Of a stretch of 64,000 nt of DNA, positions 7,760 through 42,081 are shown piece by piece; position 1 is the first letter of the stretch, and each line of letters opens with the position of its first letter. The stretch covers positions 76,507-140,506 of the IMG/VR virus record IMGVR_UViG_3300029906_000002, one strand, 5' to 3'. Made by a program: the position numbers and the translations under genes. The notes below the pieces were generated by a model. It was not told the DNA's origin and searched no databases. It saw only the letters and a list, made by a program, of their open reading frames with translations. Source of the stretch: a virus.

Positions 7760-7957
7760 ACGATAGAAAATGAAAGAAATTCAAAAACCAGAACATTATT
7801 AACCCTAAAAAACAAAGTAAAAAAAGGCGAGGGATTAATCACTTCCCCCGCCTCAAAGTGTGCCTCAGTGTGCGCCTTGTGACTTTGTGTGCTATGACAA
7901 AAATAAAGGCAGGCTTATGGTAGCCCGCCTCAATAATTCATTTATGTAGTTATGGAA

Positions 7958-8347
7958 TCACAAATCCGTTTCTTCTTTCTTAAACAGGTTGATAATACCC
8001 TTTACAATATCATAAATACCGCATGACATGGATCCTGTGGCTACACCTGCGAGTACGCACATACCCCAACTCAAATCAGTAACAGGGCTTGGAATACTTA
8101 CGGCTTTTACGATAACTGCAATGGCAATACCGATTACCAACGAGCAGCCAATCTTAGCCCACTTGTTGTCAGCGATAACGGGTACCAACTTACCGAGTTG
8201 AGTAATAAGCATACCGACAATACCAGCCAATCCTGCGTATGTCGTAAAGTCAAGAACGATGCCTGTAGCATCACTTGCGCCGTCTTGCGCCAGCAGAACC
8301 ATAGGACACGCCAGCAACAACATCAAAAAACAAATCCAATTCTTCAT
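7958..8347 (-). CDS. Holin-like membrane protein
   Basis: 129 aa, signal-like N-terminus plus three hydrophobic segments, charged tail (KKEETDL); converges on the endolysin gene. Confidence 0.6.
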   Translation of the reverse strand: MKNWICFLMLLLACPMVLLAQDGASDATGIVLDFTTYAGLAGIVGMLITQLGKLVPVIADNKWAKIGCSLVIGIAIAVIVKAVSIPSPVTDLSWGMCVLAGVATGSMSCGIYDIVKGIINLFKKEETDL

Positions 8348-8377: not shown

Positions 8378-8907
8378 TTAGCTGTATGGTAAAAACGATA
8401 GGATCATTATATATCTTTCTTCCCGTGGTTCAAAATAGGTATCTTCTATAAATGAAGGATATAATGTCTGATTATTTATAATTGTGAATGTACTTCCAGA
8501 TGGCATTTCAAGAGAGTAACCAGTACCTTGTGTATATGATTCATTGTTAGTTATGGTATCAAGGTTTAAATCAAGTTGAAAATTAATAACAAACTCTGCA
8601 TCAGCAAAAGGAAATCCATGAGTATAATAGGATATTGAAGTCTGTATAATATTATCATCACGTAATTCAATAATATCATTAGTCTGTACTGATTTTGTTG
8701 CTTCATAAACATACCCTAATTCATCACGCAGAATTTCGGTCATCATTGTACCAACCTGTAAGTCGGTTTCTTTTAAGTTGTACAAAACATTACACCCTTT
8801 GTATATATCAAAAGCAGGCGTAAATATTATATACTTTATTCCGTTTTTAAGGTTAGCGTACTGCCCCCCCCCATTACCATATCGTTGTATATTAATCTTT
8901 TACGCAT
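8378..8907 (-). pseudogene. Poly-G frameshifted gene (OFF state; 176 aa if G10)
   Basis: ATG 8907 MRKRLIYNDMVM then G9 (8864-8872) gives a 23-aa peptide ending at TAA; one extra G reads GGGQYANLKNGIKYIIFTPAFDIYKGCNVLYNLKETDL straight into ORF 8378-8785. Confidence 0.8.
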
Positions 8908-8914
8908 ATAGATT

Positions 8915-9865
8915 TTACTTTACACGAATAAATGCACGAACATAATTGTTTTTGTCCTTATTGTAGTTATAGACGAAGCCACCGTACGTGCCAACAAAAC
9001 AAGCTTCTGTATTATTGTACTCCGTAGAAGACCAATAGCTGTCGCGCAACTCTACTCCAACGGACGAACCATACGCTGTACGCATTTTGTTTATTGCCTC
9101 ATTTATTTTATTGAAAGGAGGCATTATGTAACCTAATTCACCACAAGCAGGCAAATACCAATCACCTTGTTGAGTACCTTCGGTATGAAACATATCACAG
9201 CATGAAGCAGCAGGATAATCAGCTTCGGTTGTCGCATCAGGTTTCCATGAATTATAATCCTTAGTTCCTCTTTGCGTTATTATTTTTGCTGTATTTCCGA
9301 TTCCATCAAAGTCAGCTAACACATTTCTTGATGAAGAAGGTGAGGAGGTTTGATAATACCCAGGATTTCTACTTCCGTCAGTCAAATATGGCGATGGAAT
9401 ATAAGGCGATGAATGATAAAATGCATCCGTATCATGAGTGCATTGTGTACCGTTAAATCTATCACTGGGTAAATAACCAATAGTATCTTCACCTGTTGGA
9501 ATACCATTTGATGTGTTACCAGTAGGTACTCGGTCTAAATTAGGTAATCCTGAGATATCAGTACCATATCTTCCCCAATACATATATTGTTTAGATATAC
9601 TGCCTATTGAAGGTGTATCACAACTCATAGTCTTCAAACTCATCACCCCGCAAGAACCGTCACCATAAACATCGTGATAACCAGGCACAACTGCAATACC
9701 AATAGGTGTATATCTGTCAACTGGATAGGTTCCTACACTCCATGTATCACCATTAGCAATTATCAGACTATCATTTGTCTTATCATAAAAACATATATCA
9801 CAAGCTTTTGATTCACTTGGATTTATACTACCTCCGCTTGTTACTTGCAAAATCCTTCTTCTCAT
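8915..9865 (-). CDS. Putative receptor-binding protein with CLec/DUF1566-like DGR-target C-terminus
   Basis: 316 aa; DFDGIGNTAKII, GDWYLPACGEL and terminal YWSSTEY...YNYNKDKNNYVRAFIRV motifs typical of DGR targets; MRRRIL..GG leader. Confidence 0.75.
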   Translation of the reverse strand: MRRRILQVTSGGSINPSESKACDICFYDKTNDSLIIANGDTWSVGTYPVDRYTPIGIAVVPGYHDVYGDGSCGVMSLKTMSCDTPSIGSISKQYMYWGRYGTDISGLPNLDRVPTGNTSNGIPTGEDTIGYLPSDRFNGTQCTHDTDAFYHSSPYIPSPYLTDGSRNPGYYQTSSPSSSRNVLADFDGIGNTAKIITQRGTKDYNSWKPDATTEADYPAASCCDMFHTEGTQQGDWYLPACGELGYIMPPFNKINEAINKMRTAYGSSVGVELRDSYWSSTEYNNTEACFVGTYGGFVYNYNKDKNNYVRAFIRVK

Positions 9866-9942
9866 AAAAAAAGAGCTTTATAGTTTCCTACAAAGCTCAT
9901 TACAAATTATCAAATCAAATCAAGCATGAAGAATAATTTCTA

Positions 9943-10992
9943 TTAAACAGCCTCAACGTAGCTACCTCCTCCAACAGTTGCAAGCGTTGCCAAGTCGTCA
10001 TAAACAGGGATTACTGTATCACGGATGCACTTGTACGTCACGCCGTTTTGCGAGTAGTATTTACCCAATTCAAGACGCATGTTTCCATTGTAAGGAATCG
10101 GGTCTTCAAGCGTTCCAGCGTGCGTTTCATCTATTTCTTCGTACAAAGAAGCTGTAGCGATTCCTGGAGCCCAATTTTCCTGCAACTGATGCTGTTGCCT
10201 TACCTTGAACAGTTTGTTCTCATGACGCAGCTTGAAGCCGACAGCAACACTCTTTCCGAACTCTGCACCCCTCTTTCCCCATACGGGATAGAGCATCTTC
10301 ATAGATAAGGCTGTGCTATCGTCATCAGAAGCTGTAAACTCATTAATATGAAGAGCTATGTAGGACGCCACTTGACGATTGAAGGAAGTCTTTTCTTCTT
10401 CGTTATCGAGCTTTTGCAGAGATTCTGTAGTCATGGCAGCTTGCACAGGCAAACCTTCATTGACTACTATAGCTTGGATATCCTCAACTTCGGTAGCCGT
10501 GTTGATTTCAAGTTGTTTCTGGGTAAGCCAAGATTGACAATCGGATTCTTGCTTGGCAATAAGGTCGATGACATGGTTGACCAGATTAGGGTCGATATCC
10601 TGCGTGCCAATCTTTACGGTGCTCTTGCCAATAGCCAATGCGCGGTTTACTTCGTCGCGCTTCTGCAAACGCTGCGTGCTGTTCAACCAAACCTGTTCGT
10701 CGTTTACCGTGAACTTGTTGTAGTTGTCGTAGTAATACGTGCTCAGCTCGCTGTTCTTTGAGCGTCTTGCTTGCGCGGGCGTGATAGGATTGATAGCTTT
10801 GTTGATGATTTCTTCAATCGTAGCTGTAGGATGCTCAGACTTGAATGCAAGCTGCTCCTCATCAAGCAAAACCCACTTGTTATTCTTATAGTCTTCGTAT
10901 GTGGTGCCAATATTGTCGTAGAGTTCAGGATCCAACATCTCTTCAAACTCTACATAATGGCCAGCGATATCTTTCTTTAAATATGTAAACAT
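9943..10992 (-). CDS. Tail-fibre assembly-like protein with C-terminal carbohydrate-binding-like module
   Basis: 349 aa; central FTVNDEQVWL region resembles DUF4376; C-terminal WAPG..SLYEEIDETHAGTLEDPIPY...YYSQNGVTYKCIRD. Confidence 0.6.
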   Translation of the reverse strand: MFTYLKKDIAGHYVEFEEMLDPELYDNIGTTYEDYKNNKWVLLDEEQLAFKSEHPTATIEEIINKAINPITPAQARRSKNSELSTYYYDNYNKFTVNDEQVWLNSTQRLQKRDEVNRALAIGKSTVKIGTQDIDPNLVNHVIDLIAKQESDCQSWLTQKQLEINTATEVEDIQAIVVNEGLPVQAAMTTESLQKLDNEEEKTSFNRQVASYIALHINEFTASDDDSTALSMKMLYPVWGKRGAEFGKSVAVGFKLRHENKLFKVRQQHQLQENWAPGIATASLYEEIDETHAGTLEDPIPYNGNMRLELGKYYSQNGVTYKCIRDTVIPVYDDLATLATVGGGSYVEAV

Positions 10993-11009: not shown

Positions 11010-11708
11010 TTAAGATTGTGCTGCGAATCTGATATAACGCTTAGAGTTGTCGAACACAACATTGATTTCGGCGTAACCGTTTGCAGGAACAGTAAGCGAA
11101 TCGCCAGACATGTTCACATAAGAAGAAGTGGTCGGCATGGATACTGTTCTGTCAGAGCCTGAAGAGTTACGCACAATAATGTGCAATTCCTTACCATCAC
11201 CAGGATTGTTAGCTACAGTGAAGCTCTGGTTCGACGAGATGGTAGCAATGACCAATCGCTTGCTGGTTGCCACGTTAGACAGACTTGTTGTCGTGTTGTG
11301 ACCCGTGTTACGATTGTAGTCAGCAACCGCATTAGAAGTACCGGATGGAACAGTGGGAATGCTCGGCTTGTTAGACAAGTCGTTGTAACTTCCCGATGTA
11401 GCTACTGTAGCCAATCCGCTTACTTGTGCAGCAGTATGGGTATGACTGGCAGCGGCCTTACCATCCAACTGGTCCTGCAAATTAGTAACGTCAGAAATAG
11501 CATGGGTATGTACTGTATCAGCCTTACCAGCCAATCCTTGTGTCAACTCTTCTTGGGTAGCGAAATCTCCGCTTGCTCCATTCGAGTTGTGGTTTAAGAC
11601 ACCAAAAACATAGGTGTCGCCTGTGTCTGTACATTGATAAACCCCTCCCTGGTGGGTTTCAGCAACGTAAGAAGCCGCAGGTCCTTTGTAAAAATTCACG
11701 TATGCCAT
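11010..11708 (-). CDS. Short tail fibre with HxH phage tail repeats
   Basis: KADTVHTHAISDVTNLQDQLDGKAAASHTHTAAQV and ATVATSGSYNDLSNKP motifs. Confidence 0.75.
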   Translation of the reverse strand: MAYVNFYKGPAASYVAETHQGGVYQCTDTGDTYVFGVLNHNSNGASGDFATQEELTQGLAGKADTVHTHAISDVTNLQDQLDGKAAASHTHTAAQVSGLATVATSGSYNDLSNKPSIPTVPSGTSNAVADYNRNTGHNTTTSLSNVATSKRLVIATISSNQSFTVANNPGDGKELHIIVRNSSGSDRTVSMPTTSSYVNMSGDSLTVPANGYAEINVVFDNSKRYIRFAAQS

Positions 11709-13068: not shown

Positions 13069-14733
13069 TCAATCGCCTTCGTACCATTCCAGAGAAGCCT
13101 CCAGAGCATCCAGGGCAGTCTTCAAAGCCTTACCTTGTTCGGCAGACAGAACCTTGTCAGTGCCACCCGTAGTCAGGTCGTTAACGATATCGGCATCTTG
13201 CAAAGCGGCTGCGGCGGCGGCAGCAGCTTCTTTTGCACGGGCCTCAACCTTAGCGATAGCCTGGTTCAGATTGTCGGTTGCGGCAACATCTGCGGCAGTA
13301 CCGGCAGCATAACCAGTAGCCAAGATATCAGCACCGTTCAGTACGGGGTTCGTATTGATAGCCTTGCCGTTTACAGTGTAAGCTTTGATAGCCGCGATTT
13401 CAGTGGCGTTGTCGTCAGCCTTCTTCTCAACCTTACCGATAGCTTCAGCGATAGTATCACCGGGCTGTACATCGGGATTTTCAGGAGCGGACGGCTTTTC
13501 GTAATCGGTAATACTACCAGCACCTGCATCAGGCTTGGGAGCTTCACCCGGCTCAGAAGGATCAATACCGGCAGCAGTTGCCAGAGCGTTCAATACCTTC
13601 TTATCCTTCAACGACATTACACCGTCAGCAGTTTCCGTAGCAACGGGAATGGTCACATTGCCAGCAGTGGGGCTGATAGCGGAACCAGTGCCCGGAGTAA
13701 CGGTCTTGACAACTTCTGCATCCAGAGCTGCGATAGCGTCAGCATTCGTCTTAACCTGTGTGTCGATAGCTGCAACGGCACCAGCCAAAGAACCGGCTTC
13801 GCTGCCATAGTTCAAACCAGGCAGAGTAGCATCAACATCACCCAGGTCCTCGCTCAATTCAGGAACGGAAGGAGTATCACCACCTGCGCCAGTCAAACCA
13901 GCCAAAGCAGCCTTATCAGCAGCCGACATCAAACCTGCGGCAGAATCCGTAGCAGCAGGAATGATAACCGTACCACCGTCGCCAGTAGAGAAAATGTTTG
14001 TAGCACCTGCCTTATCAGAATCCGTAAAGGCAATAGTGATGTTCGTTGCAGACGGAGTAACCGCGCCAAAACCTGTTACAACAGTCGTTGGAACGCTGTT
14101 CAAGGCATCGCGGTTGGCCTTACCCTTGGAGCCTTCGTAAGCAGTACCAGCTACTTCACCGAGAACGATAGAGGGAGAAACCTCTGCCATGTTGGCACCA
14201 TCCCAACGGTACAGCACGTTCGTGCGGCCTTGGTCGTCGGCACCACGACGGTTGTACAGAACCTGAGTTTGCGGGTCAGTCTCAACCCATACGCCTTCTG
14301 CGCCTTCGATGATCTTCTTAGATGTACTGTTGAAATAGAACTTGCCTTCCTCAACAGGATCGGGGTTAGCATCAACGAAGTTCTCCAAGCCGAGCACGTG
14401 GCCGATAACGCCGGAAACCAGATCGCTATTGATCTTGCCGTTTTCATCGAACAGCTTCGTGTTCAGAGCTTCAATCAGACCGTTCAGCGTCTTACCCTGC
14501 TCAGCGGACAAAGCCTTGTCTGCGCCGCCAGTCGTCAAATCATTGACGATAGCTGCCTGGATCAGCTCGCCGATGCTTTCAGCGTCTTGGCTGCAATCGA
14601 AATAAATTCCGTGAGTGTAAATCTGCTTGGTATCCTGAATAAACACGATGGTGGTTTGGGGGATACCAGGAGTGGTCAAGGCAGTTTGGAAAGCTGCCAG
14701 TGTCTTAAAATAAGCAAAGCGATTACTAATCAT
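13069..14733 (-). CDS. Tail fibre protein
   Basis: 554 aa Ala/Gly-rich; IVNDLTTGG.DK.LSAEQGK at both ends; IPAATDSAAGLMSAADK repeats. Confidence 0.8.
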   Translation of the reverse strand: MISNRFAYFKTLAAFQTALTTPGIPQTTIVFIQDTKQIYTHGIYFDCSQDAESIGELIQAAIVNDLTTGGADKALSAEQGKTLNGLIEALNTKLFDENGKINSDLVSGVIGHVLGLENFVDANPDPVEEGKFYFNSTSKKIIEGAEGVWVETDPQTQVLYNRRGADDQGRTNVLYRWDGANMAEVSPSIVLGEVAGTAYEGSKGKANRDALNSVPTTVVTGFGAVTPSATNITIAFTDSDKAGATNIFSTGDGGTVIIPAATDSAAGLMSAADKAALAGLTGAGGDTPSVPELSEDLGDVDATLPGLNYGSEAGSLAGAVAAIDTQVKTNADAIAALDAEVVKTVTPGTGSAISPTAGNVTIPVATETADGVMSLKDKKVLNALATAAGIDPSEPGEAPKPDAGAGSITDYEKPSAPENPDVQPGDTIAEAIGKVEKKADDNATEIAAIKAYTVNGKAINTNPVLNGADILATGYAAGTAADVAATDNLNQAIAKVEARAKEAAAAAAAALQDADIVNDLTTGGTDKVLSAEQGKALKTALDALEASLEWYEGD

Positions 14734-30636: not shown

Positions 30637-31548
30637 CTATTTATCGTATAATGACATATCATTAAATACTCTCCTCACGTCTTCTGGAACTTCGTTTGGT
30701 TGTATTCTTTGATTGTTGTAGTAATAATATCCTTGTCCAAATCCTGCATATTCAGGAGCGTAGTATCTGTAATTATTCATCTCGTAATTCCATCTTCCTC
30801 TTCTTACTCCTCCTTTGCTTTTTATCTCATCAGGAGATAACGCTTTGTATGCACTATGCGATTTAAACGCTCCAGATATATCAAGAGGAAGTGTTCTTGG
30901 GTCTACTGATGTTTCACGTACTTGCCCCCCCCCACGATCTATTTCGTGGGTGTAAGGTTTCCCTACGTGACCAAATCCTCCGTTGTTATACATATCGCGC
31001 ATAGCCTGATATGTATTTTTACCAAACTTGCCATCGGTAGCTACGCCAAGGTATTTCTGTATGGCAGTCACATCATCAATGCTATCGACTTTTCCAAGAT
31101 CATAACCAAGTTCTTTTGACAAATTAGCAAGCCTGCTATTTGCTTCATTGAGCCACCACTTTCTATCGCTTGCAACTTTAGCGGCTTTCTGACCGAATCT
31201 CTGTATTTCAGCATTGATATTACCCATTACTGGAGACGGAGCATTGTCAATCGTTGCGGCATCATCCAGTCTTTGTGTAACAGCTTGACCAGGTAGCGGT
31301 ACATTAGGAGAAGTAGGTTCGGGACGATTGGCTTCTGCTCGCTTAGCAGCTTCTTGAAGAAACAAATTCTTATTGGCAGCAAACTGTTGACGCATCCTAT
31401 CGTTGTTGATCTGTGCGTTACCTCTCCAATCCTTGCCATACAAACTCGACATCGTATTGTCGAACAAAGCATTTTGTGCAAATACCTCTCTCCCCTTCTC
31501 CGCTCTTCTTGCTGCCCTTCTGGCCCGTATATTGTCAAACAAACCCAT
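30637..31548 (-). CDS. Protein with peptidoglycan-binding-like motif and in-frame G9 tract
   Basis: DVTAIQKYLGVATDGKFGKNTYQAM resembles PG_binding_1; G9 at 30925-30933. Confidence 0.65.
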   Translation of the reverse strand: MGLFDNIRARRAARRAEKGREVFAQNALFDNTMSSLYGKDWRGNAQINNDRMRQQFAANKNLFLQEAAKRAEANRPEPTSPNVPLPGQAVTQRLDDAATIDNAPSPVMGNINAEIQRFGQKAAKVASDRKWWLNEANSRLANLSKELGYDLGKVDSIDDVTAIQKYLGVATDGKFGKNTYQAMRDMYNNGGFGHVGKPYTHEIDRGGGQVRETSVDPRTLPLDISGAFKSHSAYKALSPDEIKSKGGVRRGRWNYEMNNYRYYAPEYAGFGQGYYYYNNQRIQPNEVPEDVRRVFNDMSLYDK

Positions 31549-40683: not shown

Positions 40684-41178
40684 TTATGGATTTGGAGGAA
40701 GATTGCTTTTAGAGAAATTGAATATTAATGTGGCTAAACTACCCATCCAACACCACACATAAGGGCATTTACCAGGTAGAATATACATACCAGTTATTTT
40801 TATATTTGAATCATTAGAACTAAGTTCATTGTCATTATTTTGCATTGTATTATTTGATTCAACTGGTTGCGGAATATACGAAAAGACAAGATCAGCTGTA
40901 TTTCCCATAATATCTTCACAGCGTATAGTTAATCCATAATCAAGTACGCTTTGAAATGTCAACGTACTTCCCTGATTATAGACATAGCTGTAATAATCAT
41001 TTTTGTATATAAATGTTGATGATGGGCCGTTTGAAAAAATATTTATTTTATTGATTATAGAATCATCCTGTGATTCAAATCGACCATACACAAAAATCAT
41101 TTGAATATTACTATCGAAACTCGGATATCCAGCTAACCCCCCCCCATTTTCAACAGTTTCAAGTAAGCGTCTACGCAT
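40684..41178 (-). CDS. Poly-G leader protein, ON state (164 aa)
   Basis: MRRRLLETVENGGG; G9 at 41137-41145 in frame. Confidence 0.85.
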   Translation of the reverse strand: MRRRLLETVENGGGLAGYPSFDSNIQMIFVYGRFESQDDSIINKINIFSNGPSSTFIYKNDYYSYVYNQGSTLTFQSVLDYGLTIRCEDIMGNTADLVFSYIPQPVESNNTMQNNDNELSSNDSNIKITGMYILPGKCPYVWCWMGSLATLIFNFSKSNLPPNP

Positions 41179-41206
41179 GAATAAACTTGTATTAAATAGG
41201 ATAAAA

Positions 41207-41695
41207 TTAGAAAATTAAGCCTGTTATATAAACCAGATTCTTGTTATCGTTATTCACAAGTAAAACTATACTAAATGAGACATTTGATTGCTCAATGCCA
41301 GGATTATTTACTGAAAAATTCAATTCATGGTTCGGAACCATAGAATCGGAATGATCTACTACTTCCAGTGACATGACACTGCTATTATAAGTTTTGTCAA
41401 TTATTTCAAGTTGGTCGGCATCATTATGGAAAATAACTATTTGCATAAGCGGAGATAAGCCTGTTAGTTGCTTATCGTATTGTTCTATCGTTACCAGAAA
41501 TCTGTTACTTTCTTGAAATGCGTAGATTTGGCCGGTTCTCGTATAATCTTCCGTGAATATCCGATGCGAATAATCTTGTATACTGTAATTCCAATACACT
41601 CTTTCGTATCCTTCCGATGAGAATTGCAGGGTTATACTACTTATTATCTGGTCGATATTTGCCCCCCCCCCATTTCCAAAGAGACGCTTGCGCAT
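41207..41695 (-). CDS. Poly-G leader protein, ON state (162 aa, beta-rich)
   Basis: MRKRLFGNGGGA; G10 at 41662-41671 in frame. Confidence 0.85.
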   Translation of the reverse strand: MRKRLFGNGGGANIDQIISSITLQFSSEGYERVYWNYSIQDYSHRIFTEDYTRTGQIYAFQESNRFLVTIEQYDKQLTGLSPLMQIVIFHNDADQLEIIDKTYNSSVMSLEVVDHSDSMVPNHELNFSVNNPGIEQSNVSFSIVLLVNNDNKNLVYITGLIF

Positions 41696-41725
41696 AAGAA
41701 ATGAAGTGTTGGAAACAAAATTAAA

Positions 41726-42081
41726 TTATTGAACTGTATTTGGGAAAAACGAATGATAAGCTTCTACTACTTGATTTGATAAGCTTGACATACTATTAAC
41801 ATTTAACATAAACATCATAGATCCGGTACCCGTATAAGCAATCATGTATGAGCTATCAAGTAAATACATTATATTATTCAATAAAAGCACGTACGCAACC
41901 AATATTACATTATGATCGGTTTCATATACTAAGCATCTTGTAATACAACCTTCCGTACAATTAGTGGGAGTGATATTTCGTAATGGTCCTTCAATAGAAT
42001 TTACAATAGGATAACCCATGAATTCAGTATCATTAGGACCAATTACCTCCCCCCCCCTATCATTGTTCTTCTTTCAAACAT
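41726..42081 (-). pseudogene. Poly-G frameshifted gene (OFF state; 118 aa if G10)
   Basis: ATG 42081 MFERRTMI then G9 (42049-42057) gives MFERRTMIGGGR*; one extra G reads GGGEVIGPNDTEF into MGYPIV ORF 41726-42019. Confidence 0.8.

Follow-up and report, generated by a model that had tools for sequence, protein, structure and literature searches.

Homopolymeric tracts whose length changes switch genes on and off are described as contingency loci in bacteria such as Neisseria, Campylobacter and Bordetella (PMC1891110, PMC2831843, PMC8355987). Comparable loci are described in phages. In coliphages T2 and T4, the abstract of one preprint describes repeats that give rise to reversible frameshifts as a form of bet-hedging, in agt, rIIA and other genes, with effects on the evasion of host defences; neither a conserved leader module nor a long poly-G tract figures there (Gomez, Barrick, Waters, bioRxiv 10.1101/2025.10.21.683753). 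Phages of Campylobacter carry hypermutable poly-G tracts in receptor-binding-protein genes, in which length changes are reported to toggle the gene and produce mixed progeny (Sorensen et al. 2021, Cell Rep 35:109214; PMC12823448, PMC10877375). In crAss systems, phase variation has so far been described on the host side (PMC8375218), and our searches of the literature turned up no paper that connects Crassvirales with poly-G tracts.

Here we analyse a gene in a 64,000-nt stretch of viral DNA (the window) that, from its sequence and from its relatives, is likely to be a real coding gene starting at ATG 8907 on the minus strand and governed by a hypermutable poly-G tract, that is, a contingency locus. 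Among described systems, the nearest by analogy are the receptor-binding poly-G tracts of Campylobacter phages. The two have in common a poly-G tract that is carried by a phage, lies within a coding region and belongs to a host-recognition region, with toggling by length and mixed progeny described for the Campylobacter phages and predicted here. They differ in that they share no sequence relationship and the present phage belongs to a different order (crAss-like); in that the tract here sits in a glycine linker after a basic leader common to five otherwise unrelated genes; and in that the switched protein here is a small ORFan instead of a recognizable receptor-binding protein. With bacterial contingency loci the present locus shares a repeat near the 5′ end of an open reading frame (ORF), on/off control by frameshift, off alleles that are otherwise intact and the presence of several loci per genome, but here the carrier is a virus, switching would take place in phage replication and the unit of selection would be the burst and not a cell lineage. 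The poly-G switch thus seems to be of a known kind that is undescribed in crAss-like phages, with the leader–linker module as its distinctive feature.

Few gut viruses are as abundant as the crAss-like phages, and there is still debate about the way in which they persist alongside hosts whose surface structures switch. Tract-switched phage genes, one of them in the tail-fibre/lysis region, would give the phage a bet-hedging layer of its own.

The genome that contains the window is a single contig of 168,622 bp whose first 100 bp are repeated at its end, and it is probably complete, either circularly permuted or terminally redundant. A related 122-kb contig (L003) encodes a 479-aa protein with the PF23898 (Crass_capsid) domain at a position syntenic with window ORF 522–1961, which identifies the genome as that of a large crAss-like phage; the host is probably a member of the Bacteroidota. 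At about 168.5 kb, the genome is large for a crAss-like phage.

Matches in Pfam and PHROGs outline the surroundings of the gene, in which all features described here lie on the minus strand. A tail-fibre repeat protein (13069–14733) and a PTR ‘phage tail repeat’ protein (11010–11708) are followed by a 349-aa protein among the tail genes (9943–10992) and then by the gene directly upstream, a 316-aa tail-fibre/receptor-binding-like gene (8915–9865) with an Lcl_C/DUF1566-like C-terminal region (phrog_4245; Pfam Lcl_C E = 1.5e-6, below the curated cut-off). Downstream lies a holin-like gene of 129 aa (7958–8347; phrog_1299 holin, E = 8.4e-8). Terminator-like hairpins with T runs, which come from a consensus scan only, stand just upstream of these three genes (9873–9898) and just downstream of the holin-like gene (7906–7931), and the upstream gene, the hidden gene and the holin-like gene possibly form one terminator-bracketed unit. 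All related loci preserve this order of genes, with the holin-like gene after the small gene in every one.

The original prediction, made from the letters of the window, held that a 176-aa gene beginning at ATG 8907 is hidden by an out-of-frame G9 tract where the mechanical ORF list offers only a fragment with a TTG start. The list indeed contains only this fragment (8378–8785, 135 aa), and direct translation reproduces the remaining elements: the out-of-frame G9, the stop after 23 aa and the read-through with G10 or G7. On the minus strand, the TAA of the upstream gene (8917–8915) is separated by 7 nt from the ATG (8907–8905), with which a leader of 35 nt (8873–8907), read from the sequence, begins. 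The leader encodes a basic peptide of 11 residues, MRKRL plus six more; its last two bases begin the Met codon with which the tract opens. The tract itself, of exactly nine G (8864–8872), occupies codons 12–15 of the ORF; a homopolymer long enough to slip (about 7 or more) is therefore found inside the reading frame. At this length, ATG-frame translation closes at a TAA (8836–8838) that ends a 23-codon product. With one extra G, the frame is open from the tract through the gene body (8378–8863) to a TAA at 8380–8378, giving 162 residues from the tract on (P0001); the distance from ATG to stop is 530 nt at G9 and 531 nt at G10, the latter corresponding to 176 aa plus the stop. A tract with two G fewer (G7) also reopens the frame, for a product of 175 aa, and G13 reaches the same body frame; the linker then contains two glycines at G7, three at G10 and four at G13. 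In the full-length gene, the TTG at 8783–8785 encodes an internal Leu, and two in-frame ATG codons (Met-Met; 8741–8746) form a candidate restart site, from which off alleles of relatives are called. The anatomy that can be observed in the window, comprising the ATG, the G9 tract, the premature stop and the hidden frame, is confirmed.

A protein search with the body returned 20 homolog clusters (E 1e-34 to 1e-90), and the tract was read in the DNA of 15 orthologous loci (L001–L015) from other metagenome assemblies. All related DNA was obtained through exact-protein look-ups; a DNA search of the phage collection and pattern-based locus searches of viral, genome and metagenome contig collections found no relatives. 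The same ATG, leader and G run occupy the same site in all 15 loci, those with short-called proteins included. The leader is exactly 35 nt in 13 loci and 36 nt in the other two (L001/L002), in which an A takes the place of the tract's first G, and MRKRL is invariant across loci despite synonymous changes in its codons (CGT/CGC, TTA/CTA/TTG).

What varies is the length of the tract. The gene is on with G7 (L003), with G10 (L006, L007/L008 and L009/L010) and with ATA followed by G9, the form in which the first G is replaced by A (L001/L002; L001:2009–2020). It is off with G8 (L005), with G9 (L004, L011, L012/L013, L015 and the window) and with G11 (L014). A further length, G13, deduced from a protein record with four glycines (P0152), is on. 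The frame thus follows the length, with G7, G10 and G13 all open and G8, G9 and G11 all closed, and the G7, G10 and G13 orthologs, open from the same start, are the intact-frame homologs that a hidden 176-aa gene predicts. By lineage, 5 of 12 are on and 7 of 12 are off; the on state is accordingly not strongly favoured, which fits the expectation for a bet-hedging gene.

Interrupted tracts also occur naturally. Besides the ATA-plus-G9 form of L001/L002, one protein (P0155) carries Gly-Glu-Gly-Gly in place of a glycine stretch; both are in frame with a shorter pure run, and they are presumably candidate locked-on alleles.

The gene calls in public records mirror these states. Seven of the 20 homologs, 156–172 aa long, are called from the leader ATG or from ATGs just before the tract, and all seven continue through a Gly2–3 stretch into the body. 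The other 13 are listed at 113–127 aa and start at or near the conserved internal Met (alignment A1). Wherever the DNA of a short-called homolog was read (six of six), it proved to be an off allele with its start called 3′ of the tract, in five cases at the conserved Met (P0009–P0013). Homologs that truly start at the TTG, an outcome that would speak against a hidden gene, are absent: every short call with DNA has the leader ATG and an out-of-frame tract, and no on-state homolog begins at TTG 8783–8785 (alignment A1). Because callers systematically truncate or miss such genes, as in these 13 of 20 homologs, annotation of crAss-like phages needs tract-aware gene models.

Close relatives show that the length changes while the flanks stay constant. 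Across 644 bp, one G9 locus (L012) and one G11 locus (L014), from two samples of one study, differ by one substitution and two G. Among members of 90%-identity clusters, identical bodies occur in a long and a short form: P0147 (172 aa) and P0145 (118 aa); P0164 (168 aa) and P0011 (113 aa; G9 in L011); and P0007 (three glycines, G10) together with P0152 (four glycines, G13) against P0150 (112 aa). Length sets the frame, and off alleles are otherwise intact.

These comparative sequences are all metagenome assemblies, mostly short-read, in which homopolymers are somewhat error-prone, and tracts of 9–11 nt are prone to error in general. It could accordingly be argued that the gene is always in frame and that the G8, G9 and G11 readings, the window's included, are sequencing or assembly errors. 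We judge this to be very unlikely. The off lengths recur across many independent samples and studies, and two different assemblers applied to the same sample agree on the tract length in each case (L012 = L013, L009 = L010 and L007 = L008). The window's phage was also assembled a second time, in a contig of 168,641 bp; there the gene is annotated from the internal start (P0144), which makes this copy off as well. The window's other long ORFs are intact, which speaks against a generally indel-rich assembly. For the window itself, the G9 could be the consensus of a mixed population, or a miscall.

Selection on the segment that the off state hides provides a second line of evidence that ATG 8907 is the start of a contingency gene. 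By Nei–Gojobori counts over 11 lineages, dN/dS is 0.12 in the 40 codons that separate the tract from the next Met (0.124 when on alleles are compared with one another, 0.129 when off alleles are) and 0.42 in the remaining 124 codons. As purifying selection on this segment is the same in both states and MRKRL is invariant, the segment is coding and a TTG start is ruled out; the part of the protein that is hidden in the off state is its most constrained part.

The same counts bear on two other explanations. Were the frameshift a loss-of-function lesion in a decaying pseudogene on its way to erosion, the out-of-frame allele of the window would be accounted for, and a similar leader with G7 at genome position 68367, closed in all frames, would offer a parallel; however, off alleles carry no further lesions and are under purifying selection equal to that on on alleles, and on and off alternate among near-identical lineages, so decay is extremely improbable. 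Alternatively, the functional product might be the short form that starts at the conserved Met (8746/8743), with the tract toggling between a long and a short isoform. A Met does occupy that column in 20 of 21 aligned sequences, and the leader ORF ends 90 nt upstream of it, from where re-initiation is conceivable. Nevertheless, we find this reading quite improbable, given that the segment before the Met is the more constrained one, which points to a functional long form, and that one homolog (P0017) has Ile at that column.

A further alternative is recoding instead of genetic switching, in which G9 alleles are expressed through RNA polymerase stutter or through a ribosomal −1 slip on G GGG GGG, and in which an ‘off’ state in DNA amounts to lower expression. 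RNA polymerases are known to slip on long homopolymers of A or T. On G9, a shift of −1 inside the tract is precisely the one required, and, as read from the sequence, tRNA-Gly could re-pair perfectly along the run. A programmed site, however, would be expected to have a fixed length and a constant shift, whereas each of the three frames is represented among the relatives, and in 5 of 12 lineages the protein is directly in frame; recoding therefore cannot be the designed mechanism. The RNA around and after the tract (8760–8920, about 160 nt) has a minimum-free-energy z-score of −1.0, which is not unusual and is compatible with a weak structure or a pseudoknot. The premature stop is of the TAA type, and we know of no phage recoding that reads through TAA. 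As the sole explanation, recoding appears improbable, although it is compatible with DNA-level switching and might add some expression from G9 alleles.

Switching at the level of DNA would proceed as follows. Slipped-strand mispairing during phage DNA replication, a step that we infer, would add or remove G in a tract placed in a Gly2–4 linker directly after the 11-residue basic leader. Lengths of G7, G10 and G13 would yield full-length proteins that differ only in the number of glycines, a difference that is evidently tolerated, and other lengths would end translation after a short peptide; the sequenced G9 genome would then be in the off state, with a 23-aa peptide. Changes in the tract would be frequent and reversible within one population. 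With close relatives on or off according to tract length, the phage appears to switch the gene on and off at random.

The original prediction had also cast the gene as a phase-variable partner of the upstream receptor-binding gene. The phase-variable part, as a heritable switch, is supported by the polymorphism of tract length and frame among relatives; the partnership is not supported. Across seven lineages, a small sample, identities of the small protein and of the C-terminal 200 aa of the upstream protein are uncorrelated (r = 0.03), and more distant phages that have the upstream gene have neither the small gene nor the G run. Complex prediction for the upstream and small proteins gave a score of 0.00 with the fold of the partner uncertain, a result that argues neither for nor against binding. 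The identity of the small protein tracks the phage backbone instead, with r = 0.61 against the holin-like gene over the same number of lineages (seven), and the small protein evolves faster than this neighbour (64–92% against 77–98% identity).

What the small protein does can be approached from its sequence pattern and position. It has no family match in Pfam or PHROGs, its sequence-profile search of the PDB was empty, and an exhaustive search of representatives returned only its own family and two weak, repeat-like hits. The AlphaFold model is all-beta and poor (mean pLDDT 61). Searches with this model found no credible match in the PDB by Foldseek or in BFVD, nor in a wide VIA-align fold search (best Z 3.3), and matches in the ESM Atlas reached TM-scores of at most 0.37 by the length of the model and at most 0.45 by that of the matched protein. 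A likeness to tail-fibre chaperones or accessory proteins found no match in Pfam, PHROGs, PDB sequences or, with the same pLDDT-61 model, folds. N-terminal clusters of baseplate gp6/J-like proteins were considered as well and set aside, being a weak language-model look-alike below the marks for recognition and for shared features. Along the protein, conservation is concentrated in an N-terminal segment, whereas the middle varies. Based on this pattern, on its position in a late-looking unit between a tail-fibre-like and a holin-like gene and on a leader shared with a tail-fibre-like protein, our best guess, held loosely, is a late accessory protein, involved in host interaction or associated with the virion, that would be made in part of the progeny as a form of bet-hedging.

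The upstream gene belongs to a much larger family, of 1338 homolog clusters, whose consensus begins MRRR...SGGG (alignment A3); in the window, this gene has an MRRR leader whose Gly-Gly is not encoded by a homopolymer. The last 200 aa of its protein are mosaic, with 50–88% identity that is uncorrelated with the divergence of the neighbouring genes. Longer homologs of the upstream gene (487–550 aa) are not fusions with the small protein. A diversity-generating retroelement near the locus was considered and rejected, as the window's genome has no reverse transcriptase (no RVT_1 match). In related 180-kb phages (L019:5641–6068 and L020:5641–6068), a reverse transcriptase gene (RVT_1) lies 2 kb downstream of tandem homologs of the Lcl_C-like upstream gene, which suggests a diversity-generating retroelement there. 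In a 174-kb relative, a NUMOD4/HNH homing-endonuclease-like gene (L016:4694–5686) adjoins the tail-fibre-like homolog, in the place that the small gene and the holin-like gene occupy in the window.

The basic MR(K/R)R leader is common to five genes of the phage: the gene studied here, the upstream tail-fibre-like gene and three other small genes. These three stand in tandem on the minus strand at window positions 40684–42081, each combining a short leader with a poly-G run. The one starting at ATG 42063 has G9 out of frame and is off, and G10 would open about 110 codons; the one at ATG 41695 has G10 in frame and is on (162 aa); and the one at ATG 41178 has G9 in frame and is also on (164 aa). 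This cassette resembles the studied gene in the type of leader (MR[KR]RL...GGG), the position of the tract and the genome that carries it, and differs from it in being a row of small genes with unrelated bodies, whereas the studied gene lies in the tail-fibre/lysis region. Past the leader, BLASTP detected no paralogy among the four small leader genes. A fifth MRKRL leader, on the minus strand at genome positions 68336–68367 (window −8170 to −8139), is followed by only G7, with all three frames shut within 10 codons, and it may be a decayed copy of the leader–tract module.

A more speculative reading of this module, which we regard as doubtful, is that MR[KR]R...GGG is a docking or sorting tag carried by a receptor-binding-like protein and four small ORFans, and that each tract would independently choose whether its tagged protein is made. 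If so, one burst would produce virions or infections with different combinations, in up to 2^n states, and the phage would have its own equivalent of the phase variation of capsules in Bacteroidales hosts. Such variation of Bacteroidales capsules is thought to permit the coexistence of crAss-like phages and their hosts.

Finally, long G runs are more frequent in this genome than its composition would produce. The window contains five G runs of 9–10, all on the minus strand; counted as overlapping 8-mers, runs of at least 8 G number 11 where 0.16 would be expected, a count not attained in any of 100 shuffles. The whole genome has six G/C runs of 9–10, each of them poly-G on the sense strand of its gene, and its A/T runs do not exceed 8 despite 58% A+T. 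Of 2981 glycine codons, 208 (7%) are GGG, which makes it the rarest; yet, in ORFs of at least 150 aa, pure G9 encodes 3 of 27 Gly-Gly-Gly tripeptides, where the expectation is about 0.01. From the enrichment of the runs and the non-random choice of GGG, we infer that these homopolymers are maintained and do not simply follow from composition or codon usage.

Further in-frame runs occur elsewhere in the genome. At 30925–30933 of the window (minus strand), a G9 is in frame at about residue 206 of a 303-aa ORF (30637–31548), where a change in length would truncate the protein. Outside the window, a G8 is in frame close to the beginning of an ORF that encodes about 320 aa (genome 70774–70781, minus strand), and a G9 is in frame some 37 codons from the start of one that encodes about 340 aa (genome 144169–144177, plus strand).
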